Shown here in pieces: positions 11,853-30,229 of a stretch of DNA of 64,000 nucleotides (its first letter is position 1; every line of letters begins with the position of its first letter). The stretch is from a virus, in IMG/VR virus record IMGVR_UViG_3300046542_000271, positions 1 to 64,000 of that record. One strand, written 5' to 3'. The notes under the pieces are model-generated. The model saw nothing but the letters and a program-made list of their open reading frames with translations, was not told where the DNA came from and searched no databases. A program made the translations under genes and the position numbers.

Positions 11853-12908
11853 TTAACGTGGACGAGCAACAACTTCTACCTTAATGTCTTCAATGACACG
11901 TTTTGGAGAAGCTGGTGTGGCAAAGCCCTTAATAAGCGACTGTACCGACGTTAGCATGTTGACGTTTGGAAGGTCCAGGAAACTCGAGGTAGCCGTCTTG
12001 GTGGAAAGTTTAGTCTCCACGTTCGCAGGGTTACCGCCTGGATGAGACCGACCTAGGTCTGACACGATCCCGTAGATAGGACCACTGTTGAGTTTGGATT
12101 GCACGGCTTTAGGGAGGTAAGTCTCTTTAACCCCATCGCCCTTGATCGTAGTCCCCAGTACCGTGGAGCTCAGCTCGGTAGTCGTCACATCCACACCTTC
12201 CGCGATGGTGATACCAGCATCGGCGTTAGCCTGACGATCCATCGCCAACTCACGGATGTTGACAGAACCCAAACGAGAGCTAGGCGCTATCCCGTCATCG
12301 TACACCACGTAGATGTCGGTGATGTGCGCTAAAGCACCGGTTTGTGTGGCACCTGGTTTAGCTACCATGCACGCCATGTTGATCTTCCAGTACGACAGCG
12401 GAACATCCGTGAGCGTGGACACTACAACTCCATCGATGTACAACGAAGCGGCTCCAGTCACTACGTCGTGTACGATCTCGAAGTAGAGGTCTGGACGGTC
12501 GTTATAAACCACCATGCTAGGCAGGCTAAACTGCTTACCTGTCGGTGGAGCGCTGGCGATGTGATGCGTCCCCGAGACCCATGGCCTGAGGGCTGTGGTC
12601 ATCCGCCAGCCAATGATGAGCTTCTTGGCATTACCGATCGGCGGTAGCGTTGGAACACCGCGCTGTGCCTCCACCGGTGGAACTAGCTCGTTACCAGGTT
12701 GGACTTTCAGGTAAAACGCGCTGGCCTCAGAGGTGGTGTAAGTCGCTGTTGGTGACATGATCCAACGACGACTGTTCAACTCAGCGATGGCCAGCACGTT
12801 ACTGGTTGAGTAAGCGCCGATGTCAGACGCCTTCCCGACCAGTCCCAGGCCGTTCGTAATCGGTCCCAGCTTTATCCGGTCAAAGCCTTCTGCGTAGACT
12901 AGTGACAT
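11853..12908 (-). CDS. LamG/lectin-like putative receptor-binding tail protein
   Basis: YAEGFD start, YFEIVHD...SLYIDG, ITDIYV...RLG motifs shared with eight paralogs. Confidence 0.6.
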   Translation of the reverse strand: MSLVYAEGFDRIKLGPITNGLGLVGKASDIGAYSTSNVLAIAELNSRRWIMSPTATYTTSEASAFYLKVQPGNELVPPVEAQRGVPTLPPIGNAKKLIIGWRMTTALRPWVSGTHHIASAPPTGKQFSLPSMVVYNDRPDLYFEIVHDVVTGAASLYIDGVVVSTLTDVPLSYWKINMACMVAKPGATQTGALAHITDIYVVYDDGIAPSSRLGSVNIRELAMDRQANADAGITIAEGVDVTTTELSSTVLGTTIKGDGVKETYLPKAVQSKLNSGPIYGIVSDLGRSHPGGNPANVETKLSTKTATSSFLDLPNVNMLTSVQSLIKGFATPASPKRVIEDIKVEVVARPR

Positions 12909-12910
12909 GA

Positions 12911-13783
12911 TCAGTTACTCCCTACTGCGTCGAAACCATTTAAGGTATCGGTAACGATTTCATCGTCCAGTACGAGAGGTACAACTATCTCGAAGCCATT
13001 CAATGTATCGTTAGCGATAGCCATGTGGAGCTTCGGCGTATTGTCGAAGTCCGTGGTCTCAAGCACTGGCAAGAGTACATCGATCTTGATAACCGCTGAG
13101 CTGTCGTAGTACCCATCCGGAGAGAACAAGTAACTGTCCGGGTGTGGATAGATCTTCACCGTACCGTCTGGATTAACTACCGACTTGACGTTGTCGATGT
13201 CTTCTGCCAGCAGGCTATAGCCGAGACCCTGGACGTAAGCCAAGAACGCAGCAACGTTGACAAAGCCACCGTCAGGCAGGAGTAGGTTGTCCAGTACGTT
13301 AATCGAGTAACGGTTGTACGTTACATCGATACTTCCACGATACGGGTTGAGCTCCTTCGCCGTGACCGTGACCTTTGACAGTCGTCCAGCCACCTGAGTA
13401 GGTCGAGTGAACGTCAGACGGGTCAGGTCAACCGCTATCTTCATAGCGCTCTTAAAGAGCGTCGAGAACATGGTCCAGCCAGTGACGCCCTTGTTGATTG
13501 CGAGCTCTCCAGCGGCTTGCTGGATCACTTGCGTACGGACAGCACTCAGTTGGGTGGTCGGGACCGTTTTACTCGCCACACGGGCACTCACGGTCTCCAG
13601 GCTACTCTTTACATCCGCACGCTCCGGCAGGATCACGTAGGCGTTGTCAATCATGACCTGGGTGGTGTAATCGGCACTGGCTACACGGGCACTGATTGTT
13701 TCGACGGTCGATTTACCGTCGGCCCGTTCAGGTAAGATGACGTAGGCATTGTCTAACAATACCGTTGAAGTTTCATCAGCCAT
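12911..13783 (-). CDS. tail adaptor protein with N-terminal strand repeats
   Basis: Duplicated DNAYVILPERAD.KS..ET.SARVAS, then the family domain (YRGSIDVTYNR), then C-terminal DTLNGF peptides. Confidence 0.65.
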   Translation of the reverse strand: MADETSTVLLDNAYVILPERADGKSTVETISARVASADYTTQVMIDNAYVILPERADVKSSLETVSARVASKTVPTTQLSAVRTQVIQQAAGELAINKGVTGWTMFSTLFKSAMKIAVDLTRLTFTRPTQVAGRLSKVTVTAKELNPYRGSIDVTYNRYSINVLDNLLLPDGGFVNVAAFLAYVQGLGYSLLAEDIDNVKSVVNPDGTVKIYPHPDSYLFSPDGYYDSSAVIKIDVLLPVLETTDFDNTPKLHMAIANDTLNGFEIVVPLVLDDEIVTDTLNGFDAVGSN

Positions 13784-13796
13784 AACGACTCCCCAA

Positions 13797-14702
13797 TTAT
13801 TGCTCTTTGGCTGTAAAGGTCATAGAGATATCGTCAAGGAGTGTTTGAGGAGTTTTAAGGTCCGCGTGACTACCGGTGAACGTCAATCCTACGGTGCCGA
13901 GCGTAGACGCCCTGACTGCATCCAGGTGTTGAGACTCGATATTACCAGCGGTTCGGTCGAACGAAACGTCCAACGCCGCCGGATACCCGGAGATGTGGGT
14001 GCGCTTCAATCCGATCTGCAACCCAACCAGTTGCTGTGCCAATGCAGCTGCTGGAAGCGACTTCAGTTTCAGTTTGAACGCGGCGTCGACGTCGTTGGAA
14101 TTGACACTAACCTGGTTACCGCGATCGCCAGCGATAACACCAGCCAGGTTAGCTACCGCCCAATCGGTGTTGGTGACGAGTTCAAGTTCGGCGTCACTGA
14201 CATTGACAGGACCCAGCGCGTCAGCAGCCAAACCTTCCAACACATACACGTCAGTGATGTAACAGAACAAAGCACCGGTTGACTGCATGGTGACGTAGTG
14301 GTTTCCGCTGGAGCCTGTATAACCAGACGCCGCTATCCAAGGCCCAGCGTCGACACGGTACGTAGGAGAGATACCGTACCCACCAGCCATTTCGAAATAG
14401 AACTCTCGATCAATCACACACGGAATCGTTTGACCGCAAACGTTCGCCGGAGCGAACTTTGGTAGGACGCGGAACCCGATGACTTGAGCGTCGCCAGCGA
14501 CGGCTGCAAACGGCTTCTTAACGGTCAGTGAGACGCCACCACTCTGCTTCGCCGCAAGCCATCGTTTACCATTCAGCGATATAAAGTCTACGTTGTTAGT
14601 AAACTGCGTCTGGGTTTGCACTGCGTTGAATAGAGAGGACATTAATCCTGCCTGATCGGTTACCTTCGAGTAGTTCTCGAGTACCAGTAGTTTAACAGTC
14701 AT
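13797..14702 (-). CDS. LamG/lectin-like putative receptor-binding tail protein
   Basis: VIGFR, FYFEM, YITDVYV...LG motifs. Confidence 0.6.
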   Translation of the reverse strand: MTVKLLVLENYSKVTDQAGLMSSLFNAVQTQTQFTNNVDFISLNGKRWLAAKQSGGVSLTVKKPFAAVAGDAQVIGFRVLPKFAPANVCGQTIPCVIDREFYFEMAGGYGISPTYRVDAGPWIAASGYTGSSGNHYVTMQSTGALFCYITDVYVLEGLAADALGPVNVSDAELELVTNTDWAVANLAGVIAGDRGNQVSVNSNDVDAAFKLKLKSLPAAALAQQLVGLQIGLKRTHISGYPAALDVSFDRTAGNIESQHLDAVRASTLGTVGLTFTGSHADLKTPQTLLDDISMTFTAKEQ

Positions 14703-14705
14703 GAC

Positions 14706-15836
14706 TTACGCCCCTCCAACGAACTGTGTGAATTTGACCCGGACGTCTTTCAACTTAGCGCCATCAGGATCTATGGTGGTCGGACTGAGATTGACAGTAC
14801 CCACAACAGCGCCAGGAGTCGGTGTGTTGGCAACAGACGACAACACAGAACTGTCCACCAACGATTTGACTTCAACGGCGGAGTCGACGCCACTAACCCG
14901 ACCATAGCGGAAGACAGGGATAGGGGTTCCTCGCAGACGAGTCGCTACGTGATCGAGCGTCAAGTCTACCTGACCGCCCAGACCAGTCATCCGGGTAGGC
15001 AACGTATTGGTTACCACTCCGTCATGACGCGCATTGATAGCGCCGTTGGCCAAGTTATTGCTAATGTCTGTCAAGTCATTAGGGTAACCGGAGATAGCCT
15101 TGGCGCGATAGGCTTTCGTTTTTATATTCAATGACCGAGCTGACTTAAACGTCGGGTTCAGGAACTGAGAAGCCACGTAGACATCTCTGAACTTGAGTTT
15201 CGAGCCGGCCTGTATGCGGATGACTGGGGGATAGGTTACCGTGTAGTCGATAGTGTAATCAGAGCGGGTGAACAGACTATCCCACACCCGGATTCCGTCA
15301 ATCCAAATTTCGTAACAGATTGATGACAGTCCAGGCCGCGCTGCTTGGGCTGGGGTGACGTGGTATTGTCTTACTTCGACGTAATATTCACCAATGCTGG
15401 TGATATACGACTGCAACCAATTGGTGTGAACGCCAGGAATGCCGTAGTAGGCGGTAGAACCGTTGGCGCTACGCACCATACCTAGGATCGACAAATCGAT
15501 ACCCACCAGGTCGCTAAGGTTATCAACCTTTAGCCTGAAACCGAAGGCGGAGTAATTAGTGGTTTGTGCGTCGGCGCTAGAATTTACACCGAAGCCGCTC
15601 GTCGGACCATGGGTACTGATACACAGTCTCGCCGCTCCAGACAATTCGAACCATCTACGACCATCAGTACCTTCCGTCACCGTCGTCTTCAGACTTGCAA
15701 GCGCCGTGCCTGGACGAGTGAGTGTAAAGCCAGGTACGCCGTTGCTGTAAGTGTCGCTATCGAGCTCAGCGAGATAGGGACTCTGAGCCATCAAGCCGAC
15801 TGGGTGCGAGTCAGGCGTTATGTATCGAACTACCAT
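14706..15836 (-). CDS. LamG/lectin-like putative receptor-binding tail protein
   Basis: FGFR, YYVEV, EIWIDG, FRDVYV motifs; ATCCTATG promoter upstream. Confidence 0.6.
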   Translation of the reverse strand: MVVRYITPDSHPVGLMAQSPYLAELDSDTYSNGVPGFTLTRPGTALASLKTTVTEGTDGRRWFELSGAARLCISTHGPTSGFGVNSSADAQTTNYSAFGFRLKVDNLSDLVGIDLSILGMVRSANGSTAYYGIPGVHTNWLQSYITSIGEYYVEVRQYHVTPAQAARPGLSSICYEIWIDGIRVWDSLFTRSDYTIDYTVTYPPVIRIQAGSKLKFRDVYVASQFLNPTFKSARSLNIKTKAYRAKAISGYPNDLTDISNNLANGAINARHDGVVTNTLPTRMTGLGGQVDLTLDHVATRLRGTPIPVFRYGRVSGVDSAVEVKSLVDSSVLSSVANTPTPGAVVGTVNLSPTTIDPDGAKLKDVRVKFTQFVGGA

Positions 15837-15861
15837 ATTACATACTCCGTAAGGTTACTGT

Positions 15862-15869
15862 CATAGGAT
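15862..15869 (-). promoter_or_regulatory. putative late promoter (ATCCTATG)
   Basis: Identical ATCCTATG also upstream of structural genes at 34470 and 35522; phiKZ late promoters carry TATG at the start site. Confidence 0.55.
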
Positions 15870-15880
15870 TTCTAATAACC

Positions 15881-15914
15881 TACAGTGGGAGGTTGATGCC
15901 TCCCACTGTATGCT
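15881..15914 (-). terminator. terminator hairpin with GCATA leader
   Basis: On the minus strand: TAG-AGCA-TACAGTGGGAGG-CATCAA-CCTCCCACTGTA. Confidence 0.7.
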
Positions 15915-16409
15915 CTAGATAGAACCTAAGTAGTTTGTGAACATCGTGGTCTGCAAGTGCGGCTTACGCAGCACTGGGAGGTCGTAGCTACCCTTAAACC
16001 ACTTAGACCCTACCTTGGCTACCAATGGGATCGTAAACTCCGTGACGGAGCCTGTGACGACCACCGGACCATCTACCAAGTCATCCTCAGTAAAGGGAAT
16101 GCCTGTGTTACGGCGAATGGTCGGGAGGAGACCGTAGACGGTACTGTCTTCGCTGGAGTATCGTTTAGCCAACCCCAGACCAGCAAGGCCAGCCAGATCC
16201 AATTGGAAGTAGCGGACCACCGTAGTGGAAGTACCACCACCCGCTTTCGGGATCGTGATGTTCAGCACGGCATCACGGTCTGATGCCCCGCCTACGTTAG
16301 GCGTGGATGTTGGCGCAACGACGCAGTCAGCCTGGACTAACGTCTGTCCCAACAACGTACCCAATTTATCGATGAACGTACCATCGACGAAGAAGTTCTG
16401 CTTAGACAT
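15915..16409 (-). CDS. short tail adaptor family protein
   Basis: Resembles the second domain of the 20301 and 22422 proteins (FFVDGTF, YFQLDL, AKVGSKWFKG). Confidence 0.65.
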   Translation of the reverse strand: MSKQNFFVDGTFIDKLGTLLGQTLVQADCVVAPTSTPNVGGASDRDAVLNITIPKAGGGTSTTVVRYFQLDLAGLAGLGLAKRYSSEDSTVYGLLPTIRRNTGIPFTEDDLVDGPVVVTGSVTEFTIPLVAKVGSKWFKGSYDLPVLRKPHLQTTMFTNYLGSI

Positions 16410-16420
16410 CAGGTACCTCC

Positions 16421-17335
16421 TTAGGCGCGATCAACCGCTTTCACGCCGACGGTCAGGACGGTCGCACCAGGCGTCGGAGCGAGCTGTCCTACGCAGACGC
16501 CATGACCTTTACTCGGGTTGAGCTGAGCAAGGATGTTATCCATACTCGTCGAACGCACCGTGCTTGTCTTGGTACCATCAGTGATAGTGGCAACCAGATC
16601 AGCCAGGTTGTCGGTACTGAGCATGGTCGATTGCGCTACCACGGCCAACGTACCGGCTGGGATGGCGTATGTGTTGTCAAGCTTAGTGGCGCCGACAGAC
16701 TTCAATGTTCCGTCACAGACAATTACCTCGTTACCAATGCCATTAGAGACGACTGGCAGGGTTGTGGACTTCCACCGGCGAAGGCGTGGTTCTTCATTAC
16801 CCTCGAACCGGCCGACGTAAATGTCTTTGTGGGTGAAGGCCTGGTTCGAGGACGCTCCCATGCCGATGCGAATAACCTTCGGACTGAGGCCTCCGACGGC
16901 TGCGGTCTTCACCAGGATGCCGTTGGAATAGAAACGCCCCTCTCCGGTGATTGGATTGTACGCCAGTTCGAGATACGCCGGCTGTCCGTTCGTCACACCG
17001 AAGACTTCAAACGGCCTTAATGCGACAGTGCCGATGTAGAACTCGTTCGAGGTCGAGGTGGCGCCGGCCGCGACATCTGGCGATACTAGGGTCCCGACCG
17101 TAACCCAATGCGAATCCCCTCGGGCCGGATCGATGGCGTCTGTGATATCGACGAAAATGTTGTCGTATGAGCCAGCGCGTTTTCGCAATCCACTGGAGTC
17201 CGCCGCGAGACCGTTCGCGGTGCCTGCTGTATAACGGAGTACGGTACCTTTGACAGTGAGGTAAGTACTGCCCACAACGTACGCCTCTGACATTTGTGCG
17301 AGGCGTTCTAACGAATAAGCGTGAAGAAGTTCCAA
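16421..17335 (-). CDS. LamG/lectin-like putative receptor-binding tail protein
   Basis: MELLHAY start, YLELAYNP.TGE..FYSNG, KDIYVG...RL motifs. Confidence 0.6.
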   Translation of the reverse strand: MELLHAYSLERLAQMSEAYVVGSTYLTVKGTVLRYTAGTANGLAADSSGLRKRAGSYDNIFVDITDAIDPARGDSHWVTVGTLVSPDVAAGATSTSNEFYIGTVALRPFEVFGVTNGQPAYLELAYNPITGEGRFYSNGILVKTAAVGGLSPKVIRIGMGASSNQAFTHKDIYVGRFEGNEEPRLRRWKSTTLPVVSNGIGNEVIVCDGTLKSVGATKLDNTYAIPAGTLAVVAQSTMLSTDNLADLVATITDGTKTSTVRSTSMDNILAQLNPSKGHGVCVGQLAPTPGATVLTVGVKAVDRA

Positions 17336-17343
17336 GATACACC

Positions 17344-18372
17344 TCAGACGTTGTAGTGGAGGATCAGGTAGCGGAATTTGAATCCTGTCCCTGTCGACAG
17401 GTCAATAACCAGTGCCCGGTTGTAGTAGCCGGAATTGTCCACCGGTACATCGGTCACCGCAGGCAGGGTCAGGATCTGACTGCCCGCCTGACGAAGACCT
17501 CGGGCATTGTTGTAAACGTAGTCCGTGGTGCAGTCGTGGGTTATCCCGGCGGTGTTCAGAGCGTTGATCACGGTGGTCGCGTACGCTGCCGCACCCAGTG
17601 AGGTGCCAGTCAAAGTGCCCAACGTTGCAGCACTGGCACTGAAGTCTGTCGCATGAACCTTGAACGCCAGCGCATCCACTTCAGTCCAATCAAGACCAAC
17701 GATCTCTGTAGCCCGTTCGTTAAGATCGAGACGTCCGAGATTGAGCTGTCCGCCTGGTTGGAAGTAGAACGATGTCGGACTGACTTTCAGAATACGATCA
17801 GTGCCAGTTGGCGTCGGTTCTTCGATGAAGTCGAGGGACGACAACTTAGTACCGAACACACTGTTCATCCGTGCCACGATTTGAGCCGTGGTGTTGAGCG
17901 GATCGGAGATACTGGCGACCAACCCCGCTGGATCGACCACCGACAGCAATGTCGAGACGTCTACCCGTCGGTACTGCACATCGCTGTAGCGGCGATAGCC
18001 AGACGTCTTCAGGGCGTTGAGTCGTAGGTTGACGAGGGCAGGGTTACCGCTGACCACAGCACCTAGGGTCAGGTCGTAGTTCGCTGGGAGGAGTGTGAGA
18101 CCCAGCCCATCACCCAGTGACTTCAGTACCTCGTCCTTATACCCGACTTTGAAACGTGTACTGGGCGCGGTACGACGAATACCGCCAGCGTGCGGAACAT
18201 CAACGACGATGGTGCCAGGAAGCTTGGCAATACCGCGAGCGTACAGGTAATCGATACCCACTACAGGGGCGGGTACAGACAATGCCGTAACGTTGAGTTC
18301 GTCGACCTTCACCTCTGGAGGGATCGACTGGATAGCGGTTACGAGCAGCTCGTCAATCTTTACTTCGGCCAT
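17344..18372 (-). CDS. tail adaptor protein with N-terminal strand repeats
   Basis: EVKIDELLVTA / EVKVDELNVTA repeats, YRRVDV domain, C-terminal DFS...LILHYNV domain. Confidence 0.65.
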   Translation of the reverse strand: MAEVKIDELLVTAIQSIPPEVKVDELNVTALSVPAPVVGIDYLYARGIAKLPGTIVVDVPHAGGIRRTAPSTRFKVGYKDEVLKSLGDGLGLTLLPANYDLTLGAVVSGNPALVNLRLNALKTSGYRRYSDVQYRRVDVSTLLSVVDPAGLVASISDPLNTTAQIVARMNSVFGTKLSSLDFIEEPTPTGTDRILKVSPTSFYFQPGGQLNLGRLDLNERATEIVGLDWTEVDALAFKVHATDFSASAATLGTLTGTSLGAAAYATTVINALNTAGITHDCTTDYVYNNARGLRQAGSQILTLPAVTDVPVDNSGYYNRALVIDLSTGTGFKFRYLILHYNV

Positions 18373-18375
18373 GGG

Positions 18376-19332
18376 TTACTCCTGTTTCAAAGCGGCCTTG
18401 AGCTTGAGTGTCAGCTGCGTGGCTTGTTTGGTTGGGGCGATCCCTGGAATCTGTCTACCGTTCGTTGTGTTGCCGAACTCGGTGTCCAGTTGGATACCTC
18501 CGATGGAATCGATCGTGTACGCAGAAATGGTGGTTCCATCACGCAGCTCGGTGAGGAGCTTCGAGGCCTGCTGCGGGTTGATACCCTTCAGATCGACTGC
18601 TACCGCGTCGAGTGGTTTTGTCGGCAATGCAAACCCGACCGTCTTCCACGAGTCCGTCACGGTGTTGTAGATGAATGCGCCGTTCTCTGCACGCAGGTCA
18701 CTACTGATCTCGACGAGGTCTTCACATTCCCACGAGTTCAGACGGGTAGCCCCTTCAGACTTGTTGAAGATCGCGGCGTAAAAGCGACTGGCCTGTTTTA
18801 CCGTACTGGTACCACCCGTCTGACGGTCCCAGAACTTCAGGTTTACATCAGTCAGTGGCACGTTAGCCGGAATCGGCAAAGTGCGGACGAGACGGCCGTT
18901 GATGTACCCGCTGACGGTCCTTGCGATCGGATCGATGGTCACTTCGAAGTACAGATACACGTCGGTCACAGAGACCGTGAGATCCGTCCAGAGGATCGGG
19001 CAGATGCTCAGCACGCTTGGGAGGTTGACTTTGATACCGGAGAGTGTTGGCCCGGCAACTGGCGCCTGGACCGTACCGTACCATTGCCAGCCGAACGTCA
19101 AGACTTCACCATCCACCAAGCGATTCAGGACGTCGAAGCTACGAGCCTGCAAATCGGTGTAGAGGCTGTTGAACGTCAAGACCTCGCCGTTACTGTTGAG
19201 TTGGTTACTTGCGATCTGGTAAAACTGGAATGGACTCGCACCCAAGGGGATCCAGGTGTTGGTGGGTGTGGTGGGTAGGTTGGTGCCCGCACCAGCAATG
19301 CCGCGTCCTGTATAAGCAAATAGTAATTTCAT
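18376..19332 (-). CDS. LamG/lectin-like putative receptor-binding tail protein
   Basis: MKLLFAY start, YFEVTIDP...GYING, FYAA...RL motifs. Confidence 0.6.
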   Translation of the reverse strand: MKLLFAYTGRGIAGAGTNLPTTPTNTWIPLGASPFQFYQIASNQLNSNGEVLTFNSLYTDLQARSFDVLNRLVDGEVLTFGWQWYGTVQAPVAGPTLSGIKVNLPSVLSICPILWTDLTVSVTDVYLYFEVTIDPIARTVSGYINGRLVRTLPIPANVPLTDVNLKFWDRQTGGTSTVKQASRFYAAIFNKSEGATRLNSWECEDLVEISSDLRAENGAFIYNTVTDSWKTVGFALPTKPLDAVAVDLKGINPQQASKLLTELRDGTTISAYTIDSIGGIQLDTEFGNTTNGRQIPGIAPTKQATQLTLKLKAALKQE

Positions 19333-19339
19333 GGTCTAC

Positions 19340-20293
19340 CTACGGCAACAATTTGAGGGAGGCAGTCACTTTCTTCGAGACGTTGTCAAAGTCAACAGAA
19401 CCCAGATGGTTAGCCACGTCGATACCTCGACCAACCCAGTTGTCGGCAACACCAACTAGAGGGGTGTCGAGCATACTGGTGGTGCGTTCGGAGCTACCGC
19501 TGCTAAGCTTGGCGTCTAACCGCTCTGGGAAAGCACCATCCACCGTACCGCCTAGCATCACCGACGATAACTTGCGGGTGCCGGAGTAATTGAACTCGAT
19601 GGTCTTCGGCGTCACGCTGAGTGTGTCGTCGATGTTATTGTCGGAATCTGAGCTAGGGAACTGACTAGCACCAACAACCAACGCCTCACAAGCCCAGCCG
19701 CCTAGGTAGACCTTTTCAGTAGCGGGTTTGAAGAAAGCCGCGTAGACATCCTTGACGATCAAGGTGGTGATTGCTCCGGTTGCCGGTGCTGACATAAAGT
19801 AGAAGTTCAGAGTCGTACGGTCGTGGTTAAGTGCCGACTGCACTGACTTGATGAACTTGCCGTTAACGTAGAGCGACCAGGTTTTCAGGTCATACGAACC
19901 GACGTACTCGACAAACATTCCAAGCTCACCTAAAGCACCTGCAACAACCTCGGTCCAGGTGAAGAGGTTCTCTTCACCGACACTAGAGGCTACTCGAAGG
20001 TAGGAGGCACCGTTTGTTGGAAGTACTTTACCTGCGGTGGTCGCCATGTAGTGCCCGCAACCGATCACTTCATCCGCCTGCCATGACGCCGCGGCGCGAC
20101 CGACCTGCAAAGAGAGGAATCCACTCGAGCCGGTCGTCCTCACCCCTTCAGGATCGGCGAAGACAGCGTTACCTATCTGGATCCAGATGAACATCGGCAG
20201 CTTCGCGATTCGGTTCCACGAAGCCTTGACGATATCGTACCGATGTCCGCTGTTTTGAAGGTCACTCGCGGTGACCGCATGAATCAGTCTCAT
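19340..20293 (-). CDS. LamG/lectin-like putative receptor-binding tail protein
   Basis: MRLIHAV start, FVEY...SLYVNG, VKDVYAA...YLG motifs. Confidence 0.6.
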   Translation of the reverse strand: MRLIHAVTASDLQNSGHRYDIVKASWNRIAKLPMFIWIQIGNAVFADPEGVRTTGSSGFLSLQVGRAAASWQADEVIGCGHYMATTAGKVLPTNGASYLRVASSVGEENLFTWTEVVAGALGELGMFVEYVGSYDLKTWSLYVNGKFIKSVQSALNHDRTTLNFYFMSAPATGAITTLIVKDVYAAFFKPATEKVYLGGWACEALVVGASQFPSSDSDNNIDDTLSVTPKTIEFNYSGTRKLSSVMLGGTVDGAFPERLDAKLSSGSSERTTSMLDTPLVGVADNWVGRGIDVANHLGSVDFDNVSKKVTASLKLLP

Positions 20294-20300
20294 AGATCAC

Positions 20301-21410
20301 CTACAGAGAGAACGTGTAGCCGTTGGGAACCAGGTTGGTAATCCAAGGCGCGCGGGTAAGAGTGAGGGTCGATTCACCTTTAAAGAACTTGCTGTTAGGC
20401 GCAGCTTTGAAGGTAACGTCAATAGTACCGGCTGGAGTAGGGTCCGCGATGTCCACGTTGACGAACTCGTTGGCATCGAATGGCAGACCAGCCATCGTAG
20501 CGAACTCAGCGACGTTAACCGCATCCAAGAACTTACCGGGTAGGATGTCCCAGACAGTTTTCGTAACCACGCGCTGTGGAAGCTCTGCCAACGACACCCG
20601 GAAGTAGTAGACGGTCTTATTGGTGACGGTCTGTCCTACTGTGAAGGTCAGAGAGATCTGACGATCGCGGGAGGTGGTCGGTCCAGCACTCGGCGCAGAG
20701 ACATCTGCGACTTGCGTCTGGGGTGCGGTGAACGTGTCATTGAACAGCTTGTTGAACTCAACGCGGAACGTGTCCTTCGTGAAGAACGCCTGCTGAGCAA
20801 CCAAGGTGTTCGCCGCCGGCCACTGAAGCGCCTTGAGGAGGAGTTCGAACTGACGGTCAGTACCATCGAGTCGACCCAAACTCACTTGGACGCCTGGCGC
20901 GAAGTAGTGCGACGTATCAGCCGTGGTCAGTACGGTTGGGACACCTGGCGTTATAGGTACAGCCTGGAAATCATTGACCGTGAGCGTCAGACCGTAAAGT
21001 CGGTTGAACGTAGCGATGATGTCGGCAAACGTAGCGATCGGGAAACCATCAGCCGGCTTGAACAGGTCCATGTCGATCGACGAGATCAGCTCACGCACGT
21101 CACGGCGACGATACACGATCGGAGTCGACCGCCGCTTACCAGACGACTCGAGGGCAATCAGGTCGATCGTCGCCCGAGCTGTGGCTGGGGTGTCGTTCAC
21201 GACAGGACCGATGTCATACTTCGTCGGATCGATCGCGATCCCTGTACTTACCGTGAAGGCTTCCAGGAGTTCTACGCGGGGCGTACGTTTGAATTGAGTA
21301 GTACCTGCGAGGCGAGTCACGACGCTAGCCGTGACCCCATCCATGTTGATGGTCGCTGGCACTGAGACGACGGCGCTCATTGACGCGCCGTCAAAATTCA
21401 TCTCAGCCAT
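20301..21410 (-). CDS. tail adaptor protein, paralog of 22422-23537
   Basis: N-terminal MNFDGASMS / INMDGVTAS strands; shared FF.KDTFRVEFNKLF and AAPNSKFF segments. Confidence 0.65.
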   Translation of the reverse strand: MAEMNFDGASMSAVVSVPATINMDGVTASVVTRLAGTTQFKRTPRVELLEAFTVSTGIAIDPTKYDIGPVVNDTPATARATIDLIALESSGKRRSTPIVYRRRDVRELISSIDMDLFKPADGFPIATFADIIATFNRLYGLTLTVNDFQAVPITPGVPTVLTTADTSHYFAPGVQVSLGRLDGTDRQFELLLKALQWPAANTLVAQQAFFTKDTFRVEFNKLFNDTFTAPQTQVADVSAPSAGPTTSRDRQISLTFTVGQTVTNKTVYYFRVSLAELPQRVVTKTVWDILPGKFLDAVNVAEFATMAGLPFDANEFVNVDIADPTPAGTIDVTFKAAPNSKFFKGESTLTLTRAPWITNLVPNGYTFSL

Positions 21411-21422
21411 GAAGGAGCTCTC

Positions 21423-22412
21423 TTAGTTGTTCACGATGGAGAGGGCGAGTTTGCACTCGGTCAGCGGAGTACCAGTAACGTACGGCTGCGGTGTAGCCAT
21501 GACCCGTTGGTTGGCGATCTCATCAAGCATCAATGTCGGAATCGCTGTCGGCATGTTGGCCGCTTTACGGGCAACTGTCTCACTGCCATTGAGGGTACGC
21601 TTCGTATTGACCGATGCCGTTGGCCCCTGACTGAAAGCACGGACACTTTCAACTACACCACACACCGAGAAATTGGCCACTGGTGCAGTATCGAATTCGA
21701 TGGTGTGATCACCGGTGACTAACTGTGCTGCACCGCCTGGGGTCATACCGTCGATGTTCAAGGTAGTGTTCTTCGCCACAAGCTTTTGGATCTTGAAGTT
21801 ACCCAGACGGTCATCGATACTGTCCACCACGCCGACGTAGAAATCGGTGATGAACATCCGGGTTGTCGTCTCCTGGGTGGCGAAGGAGTTGAAGTTAACG
21901 ATCTGTGTCGACAGCGGATAGGCGTTAGTGTTCAGGAGCGAAAAGATACCGCTTGCGCGCTGGATGCCGTTGATGAAGATCTTGTACGCCCCCGTCGCCG
22001 GACGGTAAATCAATTCAACGCATGTCCGCTTATTCTGACCGTACGTAGCCAGGATGTCGGCTCTGGTCAGTCCACCAATCCAGGTGACGATACTCTGGTT
22101 AGATGTGGTGATGGAGAAGAAGACACCGTTTGCGACGGGGGTGACGACCGGATCGATCATGATCCCCATCGCCAGCCAACACTCCCCAGTTGGGTAATCG
22201 GCGATGACCTCTTTCAGTGGCAGACCCGTCTGCGTGGCGTACGCAGCCATACTCAAACCTTTACCGGGCGTCGGGGTAGCTTTGTACCCACCCCAACCAT
22301 CTACGTGGAACAGGTCGAGCGTACCGAGTCGCCGGACGTTGCCGTCTGGGGTAGGTTGTACGGTCAGTGGGTTCGAGAAGTCATCGATCCCGATAGCAGA
22401 ATATACTCTCAT
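21423..22412 (-). CDS. LamG/lectin-like putative receptor-binding tail protein
   Basis: CVELIYRP.TG.YKIFING, ITDFYVG...RLG motifs. Confidence 0.6.
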   Translation of the reverse strand: MRVYSAIGIDDFSNPLTVQPTPDGNVRRLGTLDLFHVDGWGGYKATPTPGKGLSMAAYATQTGLPLKEVIADYPTGECWLAMGIMIDPVVTPVANGVFFSITTSNQSIVTWIGGLTRADILATYGQNKRTCVELIYRPATGAYKIFINGIQRASGIFSLLNTNAYPLSTQIVNFNSFATQETTTRMFITDFYVGVVDSIDDRLGNFKIQKLVAKNTTLNIDGMTPGGAAQLVTGDHTIEFDTAPVANFSVCGVVESVRAFSQGPTASVNTKRTLNGSETVARKAANMPTAIPTLMLDEIANQRVMATPQPYVTGTPLTECKLALSIVNN

Positions 22413-22421
22413 CTATTTCAC

Positions 22422-23537
22422 CTAGAAAACAAATTCGGTGTAAGGGACAACCGTGTCGGCGATGTGTGGTGCACGACTGATCGAGACACGCGTCGTACCG
22501 GTGAAGAACTTCGAGTTCGGCGCCGCAGTGATGTTGATGTTGATCGGGCCACGGTCGGTGGTTTCCACGATGGTGGTGTTAACCAACTCGTTGGCGTCCA
22601 GCGGGATGCCCGTCAGGGAGTTGAGTCGTGCTACGTTCGCTGGGTCGAGGATATTACCCGCCCAGAGGTCGTAAGTACTCGTCGCCATGTATTGTGAGGT
22701 CAACTGACCCAGGTCTAGCCTGTAGTAGTAAACCGTCTTGACGACATCACCTTGACCCTTGTTGAAGGTCATGGTCATTTGACGTTCGCGCTTGGTACCA
22801 AAGCCGGCCGCTGGTGCCGACACATCTGGGATCGTGGACTGGAGCGCTGTCCAGGTATCGCCGAACAGTTTGTTGAACTCAACGCGGAAGGTGTCTTTAA
22901 CGAAGAACGCCTTATGTCCCACGAGAGTCTTGGCAGCCGGCCAGTTGAGGCCGGGGATCTCCATGTCTCGATCGGACAACGCCACCACGCCGAGCGATGC
23001 CTTCGTACCTGGGATGAACCAGTAGGAGGAATCCTTCGCGGTGATGAGGGTATCGCCCGTTTGGTTGATCGGCCCGTCTTCGAAGTCCGCCAACGGAAGC
23101 TTCGTCAGGAACAGCCGGTTGAATTCGGTGATCACCTGATGGATGGTGGTACGAGCCGGACTGTACCGCAACAGGTCGAGGTTGTAGTCAGCTGTCAGGA
23201 TGTCGGCAGGGTAACGGGCGTAGGACAGGTCCAAGCTACCCGAGTACAATAGAGGACTCACCGCGCTGACGGCGACCTTGGTGTTGTATTCACCCTCATC
23301 AGCACCGGCCAAAGCAACAGGAGGACCAACGTTGAAGTTCTTCGGGGTGAACGGACGGCCGATCTTCGCTGCGATCGACTGATAGATGTCGTCGAGCGGT
23401 GCGAGTGTGAAGTTCGGTTGACCAAAAGGGACCTTGGTGAATAACGCTTTCGCCCCTACCGAGTACAGGGCGGCCTGTTGGGCCGCCTTTGTAGCGTAGA
23501 AGACGGACGCGCCACCAGTAATAGCTGACGTGGCCAT
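22422..23537 (-). CDS. tail adaptor protein, paralog of 20301-21410
   Basis: Two tandem family domains; YYRLDL, AAPNSKFF. Confidence 0.65.
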   Translation of the reverse strand: MATSAITGGASVFYATKAAQQAALYSVGAKALFTKVPFGQPNFTLAPLDDIYQSIAAKIGRPFTPKNFNVGPPVALAGADEGEYNTKVAVSAVSPLLYSGSLDLSYARYPADILTADYNLDLLRYSPARTTIHQVITEFNRLFLTKLPLADFEDGPINQTGDTLITAKDSSYWFIPGTKASLGVVALSDRDMEIPGLNWPAAKTLVGHKAFFVKDTFRVEFNKLFGDTWTALQSTIPDVSAPAAGFGTKRERQMTMTFNKGQGDVVKTVYYYRLDLGQLTSQYMATSTYDLWAGNILDPANVARLNSLTGIPLDANELVNTTIVETTDRGPININITAAPNSKFFTGTTRVSISRAPHIADTVVPYTEFVF

Positions 23538-23551
23538 AACTCAGAGTTTCC

Positions 23552-24709
23552 TTAGTTGACGCTCAGCGTGATCGTCTTCGTGAGAGAGGACGCGTCGATG
23601 TCGCCGTTAGGCAGCCTGACGTCGATCTGAGCAACGGTAGCGCCGATACCCGGCATACCTTGGGATTGTTGGAACGGATGCGTCCTAGGCGTCCTGAAGA
23701 CCGCAGAGCGACCATCTTGCAGCGCGCCCTTACACGTCTGTTTGCCGGAGACGTTCTTCAAGTCAGCCGTCACCATCACCGCGATACACTTCCCCTTACC
23801 TTGAGCAGCCGCATCATTCAGGAGCGTGTTGCGTAGGGCGAATGCCACTGGAGAACCAGCGGTAATTGGAACGGGTGTGCTGGCGGTATAGCGATCCGTC
23901 ACGACCTTCGTCAACTGACGCGGGGCGTTCAGCACGGTCGCGTTTGGATGCGAGCTGTTCACTACATCGGATAAGGTGGCGAGTGAGAAGTTACCGTGAC
24001 GGGGCGGATCTGTCGGCAGGTCATTCTCAGTGAAGAGGATGTCTTCGTACAGGTTTTCGTAGACGTACTGGTACGGTAGCGATGAGTTAGCCGGTGCGTT
24101 TTGGTTTGCCACCATCCCCACCATCAGACCTACGAACTTCAGGGTCGGATAGCCGGAGTAACTGGTGACTACCTTCGCCGCTTGGCCAGTTATCGGGTGC
24201 TTAGCGAACCATGTCACCGTGCGTCGCTTGCGATCCACCACGACTTCGCGACGAACACGCATACCTTCCACGATGGTCAAGACGGATGACATCGATCCGC
24301 CCAACTTCAAGATCGTGTACGTACCTTCGTCACCCTGGAGGATCATCCCCAGGTCAGCCATGTTGAAGATCCAGTTGGTGGGCAATGTCAGGTAGGTGTG
24401 GGTGAAGGACAGATTGAGTTGAGTCAACCGATCGGACAATCCAGGGTCGAGAGTGTCGAGGAGGTACGTCCACCCCTGTTCGACCGAAACAGAGTTCCGG
24501 CACCAGGTATTGCGCCGCATCTTGATACCGCCGGACTCAGGGTACGAGACGTAGTTAAACGGCGCGTTAGCGGCGTTAACCCGATTCTCGTACTGTGTCG
24601 CACGCATCATCGGGATGACACCAGCCATCGGCTGTACCAACAACTCACCCACATCCCGCATGTGGGCGGTACCAGCTCTGGACGTATCGACCAGATCAAG
24701 AATTTTCAT
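23552..24709 (-). CDS. divergent lectin-like putative receptor-binding tail protein
   Basis: REVVVDRKRRTVTWF, YENLY...RHG degenerate motifs; position within the cassette. Confidence 0.5.
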   Translation of the reverse strand: MKILDLVDTSRAGTAHMRDVGELLVQPMAGVIPMMRATQYENRVNAANAPFNYVSYPESGGIKMRRNTWCRNSVSVEQGWTYLLDTLDPGLSDRLTQLNLSFTHTYLTLPTNWIFNMADLGMILQGDEGTYTILKLGGSMSSVLTIVEGMRVRREVVVDRKRRTVTWFAKHPITGQAAKVVTSYSGYPTLKFVGLMVGMVANQNAPANSSLPYQYVYENLYEDILFTENDLPTDPPRHGNFSLATLSDVVNSSHPNATVLNAPRQLTKVVTDRYTASTPVPITAGSPVAFALRNTLLNDAAAQGKGKCIAVMVTADLKNVSGKQTCKGALQDGRSAVFRTPRTHPFQQSQGMPGIGATVAQIDVRLPNGDIDASSLTKTITLSVN

Positions 24710-24722
24710 GTGAGATTCCTAC

Positions 24723-25712
24723 TTACGGATCGATTTTGAACGACAGGGTAAGATCGTTACCGATATCGGCCGGATTGATCTTCACTATCCTGACATCGGG
24801 TAAGAGTCGCGGTTTGATATCACCCGCGATCTTAGCGCCGTTAGATCCAGCTTCGACATAACCGGTGCCGGTTACTTTCTGGTGAATGGCGTAGATGTAG
24901 TCAGCCGTCTTCAGTGCAGCTGGGTTGGCTAAGCTCTGGGTGAATAGCTTAGTACCCGCCGTGTCCAGCGTCGACGCCACGGTAGCCAAAGAACCCCAGT
25001 TATTCATGTCGGTGGGAGTGATGTTGAAGTTGAGGGTGTGGCTGGTGGTCAGCAACTGCTCGACCTTCAGATCGCCCAGCGGCTCAAACACCTCACCTAC
25101 CCCCAAGCCACCCATGTACAGATCACGAACATGACCTACCACCGGCGTGTTAGCGTACGGCATGTTGATCTGATCGGCATATAGACGGAAGAAGATCGGA
25201 TACGCGCTGTCGATACCCTGAGGTGCCGGCCACTTAATCTTCGAGACGAATCCGCCATCGATATAGATCCAGAGGGTACCTGTCTTCCAATCGATGACGA
25301 TCTCCCAATACTGACCATTATCGTCCGTGAGGTGCGGGGTGTAAGGGATTGGACAACCGATCGAGCTGTTGCCGGTACTCGGTTTTTCTGAAGCGAAGGC
25401 GTAAAGGTAAGGAGTGCCCGATGCCTCACCTCTATAGCCTGACTTCGTCACGATACGGAAGCCCACCACCGAGCGATCGTACGTATCGTCCTTCAGACTG
25501 AACACACCGGCGTTGATGGTAAGCCCAAAGGCGTACTGAAACCAACCAGTGGCGTCCATCGAGACCGGACCGTTAAACAACACTCCGGGTTGATTGAGGT
25601 CGTTGGTGAAAACGTTAGTGACCGGACTCACACTGAACAGTGGTGACGAACGTTCATCCGAGTTGTAGTCAGCGACGACCTTCGGCGCACCCATTAGGGC
25701 CAGCATTTCCAT
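24723..25712 (-). CDS. LamG/lectin-like putative receptor-binding tail protein
   Basis: VVGFR, YWEIVIDWKTGTLWIYIDG, VRDLYMG...LG motifs. Confidence 0.6.
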   Translation of the reverse strand: MEMLALMGAPKVVADYNSDERSSPLFSVSPVTNVFTNDLNQPGVLFNGPVSMDATGWFQYAFGLTINAGVFSLKDDTYDRSVVGFRIVTKSGYRGEASGTPYLYAFASEKPSTGNSSIGCPIPYTPHLTDDNGQYWEIVIDWKTGTLWIYIDGGFVSKIKWPAPQGIDSAYPIFFRLYADQINMPYANTPVVGHVRDLYMGGLGVGEVFEPLGDLKVEQLLTTSHTLNFNITPTDMNNWGSLATVASTLDTAGTKLFTQSLANPAALKTADYIYAIHQKVTGTGYVEAGSNGAKIAGDIKPRLLPDVRIVKINPADIGNDLTLSFKIDP

Positions 25713-25720: not shown

Positions 25721-26044
25721 TCACTGGTTGAAGTGGAGGTAGACCCGCGTCGCATCTCCCAGGTTTACGCCGACCACACGGTTGAACAGTGGGTTGGTTG
25801 GGAGGTCGTTGTGGTTCGGACCGTTGAGGAAGACTTCAGCCTTGCAGACGTTGGTCTCACGAGCGTCATCGCAATCGTTGACCCACATGCCAGCGGCCTT
25901 AGGATCGCGATCGGACATGATCGTGGCCAGGTGGGTGCCGTCTTCTTTACTCAACTCACCCAGAGCCAAGCCAGACAGGAACTCAGCCTCGGCAGTGAAG
26001 TTCACGCGGAAGAAGTTAGGACGAGTAGCAGTGCGAGTGGTCAT
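25721..26044 (-). CDS. stand-alone C-terminal domain of the tail structural family
   Basis: ATG overlaps the upstream stop (ATGA); LPTNPLFNRVVGV...VYLHFN matches the C-terminal domain of the 27486 and 29337 proteins. Confidence 0.6.
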   Translation of the reverse strand: MTTRTATRPNFFRVNFTAEAEFLSGLALGELSKEDGTHLATIMSDRDPKAAGMWVNDCDDARETNVCKAEVFLNGPNHNDLPTNPLFNRVVGVNLGDATRVYLHFNQ

Positions 26045-26544
26045 GTCGTTTGGTTCCAAGTGAAGGAATCGGTATTGACGTAGAGCGAGATGTGTTGGAA
26101 CGGCTCTACGCGGATGGTGGTGGTGCCGTACCACGCCAGAGACCCAGGCTTAGCCGTGAGGGTTAGCGTGTAGACACCAGGTGCGCCAGTGGCGACTAGC
26201 GGGGTCGGTTCGATATCCGTCGCATCGAACAGAATGCCCAACTGAGCCAACAGGTTCGCGAAGTGGGTGTGGGCAGTATCGCCAGCGGTCACGTTGAACC
26301 GAATGACCTTGGCTGAGATCCCAACCGATTGCAGGTCGAGCCGTTTGAAGCTGAAGATCCGACTGTTTTTGTAAGTGGTGTTCTTCGCCGACGGGGACAA
26401 TTTGATGCGCGCCGCGTCTTGCTGTAACGGGTTATCGATCACCACCGGCGAGAGAGCCCACATCGTTGGATCGACAACTGTCAACGATGCGTACTTCTGA
26501 AGCTGGAGGAGGATCGTAGCCTTTGAACCTTTTCGGAAGTCCAT
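26041..26544 (-). CDS. N-terminal part of a tail structural family protein
   Basis: FKRLDL and AKPGSLAWYG motifs; stops before the C-terminal domain. Confidence 0.65.
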   Translation of the reverse strand: MDFRKGSKATILLQLQKYASLTVVDPTMWALSPVVIDNPLQQDAARIKLSPSAKNTTYKNSRIFSFKRLDLQSVGISAKVIRFNVTAGDTAHTHFANLLAQLGILFDATDIEPTPLVATGAPGVYTLTLTAKPGSLAWYGTTTIRVEPFQHISLYVNTDSFTWNQTT

Positions 26545-26553
26545 GGATTACCC

Positions 26554-27432
26554 TCAGACTTTATAATGCAGGTACAAGATGTCCGGCATGTTAGTCAGTT
26601 TACTGGAGCGGTAGAGGATGACGCAGCGGTTATAATCATCGCTGTTGAAGTAGCCGCTGGCGTTGGGTAGGATGTACCGAAGGCCATACGCACTCAACAA
26701 CCCACCTGGGGTCGTATCAGCACCCAAGTCAAATGGTTGACCTGTGATGGTGGCGATGTACTCGACCAGGTTCAGCAGGTCCAGATCGGTAGGGTTCAAC
26801 GCTTTCGCCGTCGAGGTACTCCAGGTCTCCAGGTAGTCGGAGAACGCAGAGAAGTCGTGTCCGTACGTAGCGTAGCGGCGCAGGGGATCCGCTTCGTTAC
26901 GTGGAACGCCGTCCCAATGTACCAACATTGGAGGCGCTGCTGGAACGTGGAGGTCAGTCGGGTACCTGGCGAGGAAGCCACAAGTGATCTGGCCAGTGAA
27001 CGCCGGGTTTTTGGCATTCATCGTCAGGTAGCTACGACTGGTGGTGTTGCCGTACACTTGGAATGACGCGAACGATGTCGTGTCAGCTTCCACCAACGAC
27101 AGTCCGGTACGCTTGTTGAGGGCTGCGAGGACGTCTGAAAGTAGGACGACCGCGGTAGCGTACCACTCATCAAACCACACCATCGCATTGTCGGGCAGCA
27201 GCGACTGAAGGGCCAGACGACGATAACGAACCTTGAAGCCACCGATGTACGGACTGTTCGACCGCGGGGTGATGGTCATCTCGGTATTGCGGAAGTTGCC
27301 GGCGGCCGACCATGCGACAGGAGTACCGAAGAAACACTCGTTCGCTTTAATGGGGAACGGGAGATCCGGGTTGTCACGGTTGATCAGGTCAGCCACCAAT
27401 TCACCGGTTGGCTTTTTGTAATCTATAAACAT
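26554..27432 (-). CDS. virion tail structural protein (paralog family, type B)
   Basis: DLINRDNP.LPF, YRRLAL, YG.DFS, LYLHY; start placed at MFIDY because a terminator lies over the longer ORF start. Confidence 0.75.
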   Translation of the reverse strand: MFIDYKKPTGELVADLINRDNPDLPFPIKANECFFGTPVAWSAAGNFRNTEMTITPRSNSPYIGGFKVRYRRLALQSLLPDNAMVWFDEWYATAVVLLSDVLAALNKRTGLSLVEADTTSFASFQVYGNTTSRSYLTMNAKNPAFTGQITCGFLARYPTDLHVPAAPPMLVHWDGVPRNEADPLRRYATYGHDFSAFSDYLETWSTSTAKALNPTDLDLLNLVEYIATITGQPFDLGADTTPGGLLSAYGLRYILPNASGYFNSDDYNRCVILYRSSKLTNMPDILYLHYKV

Positions 27433-27450
27433 GATCAGATTCTCGTTGAG

Positions 27451-27484
27451 GATGGAGCTGGTGTGATCCAGCTCCATCTATGCC
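27451..27484 (-). terminator. terminator hairpin with GCATA leader
   Basis: On the minus strand: TGA-CGGCATA-GATGGAGCTGG-ATCACA-CCAGCTCCATC. Confidence 0.7.
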
Positions 27485-27485
27485 G

Positions 27486-28376
27486 TCAGCTGATGGCGTT
27501 CGGATCTTCTGGGTCGTTGTAGTGGAGGATGAACCGACCACTCGGCTTGGTCACCGTACCGGCCAGTTCAAGTACCATGATGTACTTGTAGGCAGGGTTC
27601 GAGGCGTACTCGATGGAGTTCAAGCCGTTATAGACGCAGGTAGCGCCGAACACGTTCCACAACAGCGCGGTGGCGTCAACAGCAGTCCACAGCAGAGCGC
27701 CGAGGCCTTTGTCGAGCGACTTCAGTGCGTTAGCGATCAGAGCTGCCTGAGGCTGAGTGAGAACGCCGCCATCGTCGATCAGCAAGAACTGATCGCGGTA
27801 CAGGCTGAAATCGTAGCCGTAGGTGTAGATCAATGCCGAGGTCTGAGTGGTGAAGTCATCCACCGGGTAGTTCAGACCATTCAGCGTGGTCGCTTGCAGG
27901 TAGTTGTCGATCAACGCACCGCCAGGGATGATGTCGAACGTCACGCTACCCAACCAGATCAGACTGCCAGCCTTTGCCCGTACAGTGACAGTCGCCTTAC
28001 CTTGACCGTCCAAGGTAATCGGATCATCTTCCACGTCGTCCGCGTTCAACTTGATCGCGTAGTAGTAGAGGATGTTCGACAGGATGTCGTGAACAGAATC
28101 CACCTGATAGCACGGCAACGTACGTACTGGACGGAAGTGACGGAAGTCACCCAGTTGCAGGCGATCGTACACCAGGTAGGTTTTACCTTTGAAGTCGGCA
28201 CCCGGCATTGGGGTGGCCTTGATAAAGGTGTTCTTGGTGGTGGTGCCCTCACGCCACGTACCAGCAACAGGCTGTGGGACCGAGAGGGCAGTGTTAAGTG
28301 CTGTGAACCGCGTCGTGCCGTTAGCGGCGTTGATGTAGTCCAGTAGACTTTGCTTGGGATTAATGAAGATGCTCAC
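27486..28376 (-). CDS. virion tail structural protein (type A)
   Basis: MSIFINPKQ..DYINAAN, YDRLQL, LNGLNYP, GRFILHYNDPED. Confidence 0.78.
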   Translation of the reverse strand: MSIFINPKQSLLDYINAANGTTRFTALNTALSVPQPVAGTWREGTTTKNTFIKATPMPGADFKGKTYLVYDRLQLGDFRHFRPVRTLPCYQVDSVHDILSNILYYYAIKLNADDVEDDPITLDGQGKATVTVRAKAGSLIWLGSVTFDIIPGGALIDNYLQATTLNGLNYPVDDFTTQTSALIYTYGYDFSLYRDQFLLIDDGGVLTQPQAALIANALKSLDKGLGALLWTAVDATALLWNVFGATCVYNGLNSIEYASNPAYKYIMVLELAGTVTKPSGRFILHYNDPEDPNAIS

Positions 28377-28389
28377 TGACTTCTCCTGG

Positions 28390-29322: not shown

Positions 29323-29336
29323 CTCAATGTCCTGTG

Positions 29337-30221: not shown

Positions 30222-30229
30222 GGGGACCT

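Follow-up and report, generated by a model that had tools for sequence, protein, structure and literature searches.

We describe a run of 14 genes within the first 64,000 nucleotides (nt) of the viral record IMGVR_UViG_3300046542_000271 from IMG/VR; this stretch is called the window below and supplies all coordinates, and the whole record is 112 kb long and ∼45% complete according to CheckV. All 14 open reading frames (ORFs) lie on the minus strand and are read from 25712 to 11853, with gaps of 2–14 nt except for one 78-nt gap after the gene at 15915. Nine genes, L1–L9 in order of transcription, encode candidate lectin-like proteins, and four, A1–A4, encode adaptors that begin with an array of short peptides. 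A preliminary description of the locus, made from the letters alone, had the order and coordinates of the 14 ORFs right. Its four adaptors are confirmed as genes, of the DUF7941 family, but what it called a short gene (15915–16409, here A′) is a fifth DUF7941 paralog, without peptides. Since A′ is also DUF7941, the real gene order is LLA, LA, LLA, LA′, LLA, L, where L is a lectin-like gene and A an adaptor. In order of transcription, with lengths in amino acids (aa), the genes are as follows.

L1, 24723..25712, minus strand: 329 aa, L family (profile E 9e-90); orthologs in relatives are 51–83% identical.
L2, 23552..24709, minus strand: 385 aa, L family; three genomes share its last ∼25 residues unchanged.
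A1, 22422..23537, minus strand: 371 aa; its two N-terminal peptides are unlike each other and are followed by two DUF7941 N-domains; Pfam 64.2 bits, in two stretches; phrog_1037/2935.
L3, 21423..22412, minus strand: 329 aa, L family by profile match.
A2, 20301..21410, minus strand: 369 aa; a single peptide type, present twice, precedes two DUF7941 N-domains; Pfam 67.4 bits; 38% identical to A1.
L4, 19340..20293, minus strand: 317 aa; modelled by AlphaFold2 (AF2) with a ConA/LamG-like domain (residues 1–∼200) and a seven-strand C-terminal domain; predicted local distance difference test score (pLDDT) 84.5, predicted template modelling score (pTM) 0.86.
L5, 18376..19332, minus strand: 318 aa, L family by profile match.
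A3, 17344..18372, minus strand: 342 aa; begins with four peptides of 17 aa each (a, a, c, d) and continues with DUF7941 at full length; Pfam 38.6 bits, covering profile positions 52–275.
L6, 16421..17335, minus strand: 304 aa, L family; TTG start, kept in the related locus L002.
A′, 15915..16409, minus strand: 164 aa; DUF7941 N-domain only, no peptide array; Pfam 29.8 bits; phrog_1037.
L7, 14706..15836, minus strand: 376 aa; absent from the related loci L002–L004; candidate family member, from leads.
L8, 13797..14702, minus strand: 301 aa; likewise absent from L002–L004 and a candidate from leads.
A4, 12911..13783, minus strand: 290 aa; the peptide order is a-b-a-b-e, followed by a DUF7941 N-domain and, at the C-terminus, two LNGF linker motifs; Pfam 27.6 bits.
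L9, 11853..12908, minus strand: 351 aa, L family; lies downstream of A4; present in relatives at only 30–34% identity.

That the adaptors belong to the DUF7941 filament family (PF25613), which frames the whole locus, escaped the preliminary description. All five A proteins exceed the curated Pfam cut-off of 27 bits, A4 barely; the four adaptors also match phrog_1037/2935, whose labels say only 'virion structural protein'. The genes of the cassette are present as the preliminary description bounded it, but the cassette continues an array of at least nine further paralogs, and every gene from 33784 to 11853 is on the minus strand in tight packing.

Upstream canonical DUF7941 array, 25721..33784, minus strand: genes at 32891, 31998, 31188, 30230, 29337, 28390, 27486 and 26554 and the split pair 26041/25721, identified by PF25613, phrog_1037 and all-versus-all blastp.

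None of these upstream paralogs carries an N-terminal peptide array. More DUF7941 genes lie at 8384, 10220, 33878, 34974, 52321 and 53860, and the window holds more than 20 paralogs in all. Megablast of the region gave no match, and tblastn of A1 against 50,697 cultured-phage records gave none; by tblastn the nearest cultured relative is Burkholderia phage FLC9 (38% identity), followed by Erwinia and Salmonella SPN3US-like phages. A protein search for adaptor homologues returned only canonical DUF7941 orthologs. Against PDB sequences, a profile of the window DUF7941 proteins finds phiKZ gp127 (9xqd PHIKZ127; E 8.1e-18, profile positions 8–265).

DUF7941 is chimallivirus-specific, and Goslar virions carry more than 2500 copies of it; purified Goslar gp22 forms filaments (gp22/23 are homologues of DUF7941), AlphaFold predicts that the linker of one Goslar protomer docks head-to-tail on the next N-domain, and three Goslar members have fused carbohydrate-binding, hydrolase or leucine-rich repeat domains (bioRxiv 10.64898/2026.04.21.720040). 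In phiKZ, gp127 terminates a band of gp139 dimers in the outer peripheral baseplate (phiKZ virion atlas, PMC13250141). The best explanation of the locus is that it is part of a DUF7941 fibre-network gene cluster of a chimallivirus-type jumbo phage.

The head-to-tail linker can be followed as the motif L[DN]G[FYW], which occurs twice at the C-terminus of A4 and also in the protein at 27486.

DTLNGF linker motif, two copies in A4, 12932..13003, minus strand: of the DUF7941 head-to-tail docking type, a role taken from bioRxiv 10.64898/2026.04.21.720040.

Twelve strict copies, ∼20 aa apart over residues 344–665, are found in a 697-aa protein at 53860–55953 (minus strand) that also has two DUF7941 N-domain matches; this protein may act as a hub that offers many sites to the head-to-tail docking code. 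The L proteins contain neither the motif nor a DUF7941 domain, so they have no visible route of their own into such a network.

The four adaptors carry N-terminal arrays. Their unit is a ∼12-residue strand-like stretch followed by a short Pro/Gly linker, with a period of ∼17 aa (exactly 17 in A2 and A3), and they share no motif with the LNGF linker.

A1 array, 23424..23525, minus strand: residues 5–38, two types; 71% of positions invariant in three genomes.
A2 array, 21300..21401, minus strand: residues 4–37, 2 × 17 aa; repeat score 31, above the 99.9th percentile.
A3 array, 18163..18366, minus strand: residues 3–70, in exact 17-aa steps.
A4 array, 13508..13768, minus strand: residues 6–92; the 35-aa a-b unit is present twice here, absent from L002–L004, present twice in the homologue P0020 and three times in P0021.

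All the peptides quoted in the preliminary description are present, and its count of 2/1/3/3 peptide types in A1/A2/A3/A4, made by eye, is upheld. Ungapped BLOSUM62 scores were compared with those of 3000 composition-matched random peptides, for which the 99th percentile is 22 and the 99.9th is 29. Significant repeats are the first two peptides of A2 (31) and of A3 (45) and, in A4, the first with the third (70) and the second with the fourth (49); all other pairs, at 24 or below, lie within or close to the noise. The types stand because pairs within a type score above 29 and other pairs do not exceed 24. Peptides c and d of A3 align with the two A2 peptides. Across three genomes at 45–80% overall identity, invariant positions make up 51–71% of the arrays, 48–72% of the rest of the adaptors and 18–61% of the L proteins. 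By this measure the arrays are as conserved as the folded domains of the adaptors, and more so than the L proteins.

The window thus has nine L genes and nine peptide types. Assigning L genes to particular adaptors is arbitrary, as the preliminary description conceded, but the totals are independent of any assignment and the 9/9 match holds whatever the grouping. Three related loci allow the match to be followed: L002, grouped with L005 and L006, from an IMG/VR genome (G001; 263,994 bp, 100% complete by CheckV), L003 (RCUJ01001413.1) and L004 (Ga0247818_10002161). All keep the order LLA, LA, LLA, LA′ with matching peptide arrays. Beyond A′, L7 and L8 are absent, peptide e and the downstream L gene are retained, and the A4 homologue has 204–225 aa, lacking exactly the two 35-aa a-b units and with them types a and b. 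The missing L genes thus adjoin the one adaptor that lacks two peptide types, while the retained peptide e accompanies the retained downstream L gene, which fits the grouping LLAL proposed earlier. A profile search of the whole G001 genome found seven L genes, all within the cluster, and there are seven peptide types. The preliminary description had named independent variation of strand number and L gene number in relatives as a finding that would count against it; here the numbers moved together, 7/7 against 9/9, although in FLC9, described below, they are unequal. These observations support the view that peptide types and L genes are linked in function.

The intergenic region upstream of L7, with its hairpin and TATGAC, is homologous between the two forms, so window and relatives differ by one contiguous block of ∼2.3 kb, from the start of the first L gene to codon ∼73 of the adaptor. 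Among A4 homologues, those with the repeat (two units in the window and P0020, three in P0021) form one clade and those without it another; gain or loss of the a-b unit is a single event, to which one copy-number change is added. The P0021 homologue, on a 1300-bp Logan contig, has three 35-aa a-b units and a single LNGF motif at its C-terminus; adaptors of this family differ in the number of repeats and in that of linker motifs. Scanning viral and genome contigs with adaptor alignments yielded either the relative already described or no match. Other relatives are on Logan contigs of 258,171, 274,017, 145,403 and 113,104 bp, and P0020 is on a JGI contig. The conservation of each peptide, compared with that of each L protein, agreed no more than anecdotally for A1 and disagreed for L9.

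Burkholderia phage FLC9, which can be grown on Burkholderia glumae, is the sole record with L-family genes among the 50,697 cultured-phage records. Six such genes, five detected by profile and one by eye, follow its own DUF7941 array; three encode proteins of ∼340 aa, and the other three encode longer ones that have additional Laminin_G_3 domains. Directly after them lies the gene F33084. The first 140 residues of its product consist of eight repeats (an array of 136 aa) that keep exactly to a 17-aa register; behind them come a DUF7941 N-domain (Pfam E 4.6e-20), several linker motifs and Laminin_G_3 domains. The repeats (33084–33500 of the FLC9 locus, L001) have the consensus [VL]R.[VL].A[LF].[WL].Q and fall into four pair-types, with autocorrelation peaks at 17 and 34; their regularity would suit a solenoid-like fold. 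FLC9 thus repeats the pairing of a run of L genes with a peptide-array adaptor across a large evolutionary distance. The FLC9 L proteins show no special closeness to L9, which is presumed to partner the FLC9-like peptide type. Another FLC9 protein, F26268, was suggested by a local hidden Markov model (HMM) to be an L–DUF7941 fusion and was dropped when Pfam did not confirm it.

The claim that all nine L genes encode LamG/lectin-like proteins stands in part. Seven are one family: a profile built without L7 and L8 finds the other seven at E 1e-53 or better. The family is rare, with 111 representatives (E ≤ 1e-3, mostly 300–390 aa) among 1.84 billion proteins, and tblastn of the L proteins against the cultured-phage records gave no match. 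Long matches of the L profile that might have been DUF7941 fusions were ruled out, being generic Laminin_G_3 proteins. One family member, L4, was modelled by AF2: residues 1–∼200 form an N-terminal jelly roll, and seven C-terminal strands lie at 206–316 (block pLDDT 59–96). In Foldseek the N-terminal domain matches BoNT Hc and sialidase lectin domains at E 2e-7 to 1e-5. In VIA-align it matches the lectin-like domains of sialidases and carbohydrate-binding modules (CBMs) at Z 13.0–11.1, best the lectin-like domain of sialidase BT_1020 (5mqs_A; Z 13.0, root-mean-square deviation 3.3 Å, 165 residues aligned), and it also matches phage receptor-binding domains (TM4 gp23, Z 9.5; phage J-1 Dit CBM2, Z 9.9). 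The best whole-length matches of L4 in BFVD are 'virion structural proteins' of ∼330 aa from siphophages such as AchV4 and JS26. By sequence, L4 is also the best match to Pfam Laminin_G_3, at 17.1 bits and below the cut-off of 27.6; the other eight L proteins have no match to that model.

L7 and L8 are where the claim finds no support from HMM or hhalign. As leads, the ESM Atlas links L7 (feature score 0.96) to viral clusters labelled 'virion structural protein' or CBM-like, and L8 by structure (template modelling score 0.74–0.78) to viral clusters of ∼330 aa and, at 0.55, to a Laminin_G_3 cluster; both may be viral LamG-like proteins of this kind, ∼330 aa long. Most L orthogroups have their best-conserved segment (50–100%) in the last 20–30 residues, which is suggestive as the sequence pattern expected of an attachment site.

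The reading that we favour, at a probability of roughly 45%, is that the peptide arrays are docking sites for stand-alone lectin heads, while the DUF7941 part plugs the adaptor into the filament network. The heads would be nine separate two-domain proteins, each with a ConA/LamG-like lectin domain and a small C-terminal beta domain. The N-terminal peptides of the four adaptors would hold them non-covalently, probably by beta-strand addition to a conserved part of L, and the DUF7941 domain and LNGF motifs of the adaptor would make the connection to the filaments. We propose that this arrangement is a split, non-covalent version of the fused DUF7941–lectin proteins of Goslar and FLC9, and the locus suggests a peptide docking code for mounting host-recognition heads on a fibre network. 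The sequence evidence supports the functional link itself; that peptides and L proteins bind physically, with one type per L gene and by strand addition, and that the heads serve host recognition, we infer. A strict code, in which each ∼17-aa peptide type binds one cognate head by beta-strand addition and in gene order, is possible but on the doubtful side. Donor-strand completion of a defective L fold, which the preliminary description had in mind, seems to us decidedly improbable. The C-terminal domain of the L4 model (pTM 0.86) already has seven strands, mild evidence against an incomplete sandwich, though none against edge-strand addition. The model of an artificial read-through fusion of L3 and A2 (TAA read as Q) was poor (pLDDT 59, pTM 0.36), with the L C-terminal domain and the array below 40, and speaks neither for nor against binding.

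Several observations weigh against docking of L heads on the arrays. A′ alternates with L genes yet carries no peptides. L7 and L8 have E > 10 by the L-family HMM and hhalign probabilities of 2.4% and 0.7%, and L9 lacks the conserved C-terminus. FLC9 has eight repeats of four types for six L-family genes, hence no strict rule of one type for one gene, and its strict 17-aa register is what a self-folding repeat structure would show. The gain or loss is one event in one contiguous ∼2.3-kb block, so physical linkage alone could produce the co-variation, and only the relative is an independent test, because the count match in the window prompted the hypothesis.

This last point is where coincidence would enter: the count match and joint indel would have arisen by chance, and the peptides would be low-constraint N-terminal extensions left by paralog recombination. 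The grouping was post hoc and the event single and contiguous, which helps this explanation, but peptides conserved like folded domains among the three genomes, and an architecture that recurs in FLC9 with DUF7941 proteins only ∼38% identical, make it very improbable. The FLC9 register bears on another explanation, in which each array is a module of repeats that folds on itself, for instance a small beta-solenoid or a stalk, formed possibly on oligomerisation; the module would set adaptor spacing or valency, and its types would have no partner-specific meaning. An exact 17-aa register over eight FLC9 repeats and four A3 repeats would suit such a module, as would repeat numbers of 0, 2 and 3 within one adaptor family, which recall length-variable stalks. 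Neighbouring repeats are, however, often unrelated in sequence (noise-level scores), as is uncommon in solenoids; an array of only two repeats (34 aa) is too short to fold on its own; the A2 array has pLDDT 20–27 and no secondary structure in the fusion model, itself poor overall; and each type is conserved across genomes as a distinct sequence. We regard this module as distinctly unlikely.

A stronger contender, though still unlikely in our view, is that the arrays dock the adaptors onto another part of the virion (the N-domains of other DUF7941 proteins, the hub protein with its many motifs or the peripheral baseplate), with the L proteins joining by other means or being merely co-transcribed. 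Peptide docking onto a DUF7941 N-domain is the sole docking mode documented for the family, and with more than 20 DUF7941 paralogs and the 12-motif 697-aa protein in the window, peptide–domain docking is evidently widespread here; the unequal numbers of repeats and L genes in FLC9 fall on the same side. Against it, the N-terminal peptides have no motif in common with the LNGF linker, the L proteins are left without a visible attachment element, and no reason is given for the 9/9 and 7/7 matches or for two types lost with two L genes.

Docking of heads on arrays recalls several known systems. Donor-strand complementation or exchange is the assembly mode of chaperone–usher pili, and the likeness lies in short, hydrophobic-patterned, N-terminal strand-like peptides proposed to add to the beta-sandwich of another subunit; the 17-aa spacing would allow immunoglobulin-sized domains in a row. 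The differences are that several donor peptides would share one chain here and that the modelled acceptor domain has seven strands; we know of no chaperone or usher for this phage virion, although no search aimed at one was made, and expect none. Phages CBA120 and G7C and KP32-type Klebsiella phages mount several receptor-binding proteins on one virion by means of adaptor modules encoded alongside. There the receptor-binding proteins are trimeric tailspikes, branching is by T4 gp10-like/XD domains and the docking peptide is on the spike, whereas here the heads are small and lectin-like and the peptides are on the adaptor; sequence searches found no gp10-like branching domain among the Pfam and PHROG matches of the 14 proteins. 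The cellulosome scaffoldin, with its cohesin–dockerin pairs, is likewise a scaffold with several docking sites whose identity and number would set the attached carbohydrate-binding modules; the folds are unrelated, the sites here are ∼12-residue peptides rather than folded cohesin domains, and binding here is proposed only.

The closest comparison is the Goslar 'fibre cloud' (gp22/gp23 filaments, with sugar-binding domains on gp86, gp92 and gp161), which shares PF25613, many paralogs, linker-peptide motifs and lectin-like or carbohydrate-binding modules; there the binding domains are fused C-terminally to DUF7941, whereas here there are nine separate lectin-like genes, and the N-terminal ∼17-aa arrays of the four adaptors are not described there (bioRxiv 10.64898/2026.04.21.720040). 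In phiKZ, gp127 lies with gp126 where the gp139 band of the outer peripheral baseplate ends, and it is a sequence homologue of the window DUF7941 profile (PDB 9xqd); at least three DUF7941 proteins are reported, against more than 20 here, and neither N-terminal arrays nor L-family partners are described (PMC13250141). The DUF7941 family and the idea of lectin-bearing DUF7941 fibres are thus known as of 2026; the peptide arrays, the stand-alone L heads and their joint gain and loss are not described in the Goslar preprint or the phiKZ atlas.

DUF7941 fibres were recognised only in 2026 as the probable host-recognition organ of nucleus-forming jumbo phages, and this locus, a natural gain-and-loss experiment, points to a possible second way of attachment, one that is non-covalent and has a code legible in the sequence. 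If that is right, the identity of the peptides and their copy number would determine the choice and the number of heads on a micron-scale fibre cloud, and new host specificities would be gained by inserting a block of an L gene with its peptide. Host-range modules would become predictable from sequence, and the locus would provide a set of short orthogonal peptide–domain pairs. Should it be wrong, this remains the richest case to date of lectin-like genes set within a DUF7941 array.

Some further features of the region concern its expression. The only real intergenic gap in the 22-kb gene run separates A′ from L7.

Intergenic gap, 15837..15914, minus strand: the sole sizeable one, with a 10-bp-stem hairpin and then a TATGAC-containing stretch; relatives keep the hairpin with different stem letters.

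It may hold a terminator or processing site plus a late promoter; a promoter and terminator scan was at the level of shuffled sequence. Two L–adaptor pairs are in the same frame: L3 and A2 are separated by TAA and 12 nt (21411–21425, minus strand), and L5 and A3 by TAA and 3 nt (18373–18378, minus strand). Both spacers are kept in four of four genomes, the 3-nt one identical and the 12-nt one identical in L002 and differing at four positions in L003/L004. They probably reflect translational coupling; a read-through fusion is not indicated.

In the upstream array, one canonical DUF7941 gene (25721–26544, minus strand) is present as two overlapping ORFs in different frames, encoding a 167-aa N-domain (26041–26544) and a 137-aa C-domain (25721–26134). 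The split and overlap are kept in L002, L003 and L004, and the pair may be a conserved two-gene form or a programmed frameshift. A 1046-aa protein (5219–8359, minus strand) matches tail-fibre PHROGs strongly and repeatedly (phrog_3904, E 5e-222). Directly upstream of its gene, in the direction of transcription, lies a short gene for a DUF7941 N-domain (8384–8977), so that a classical fibre is encoded beside the DUF7941 cluster.

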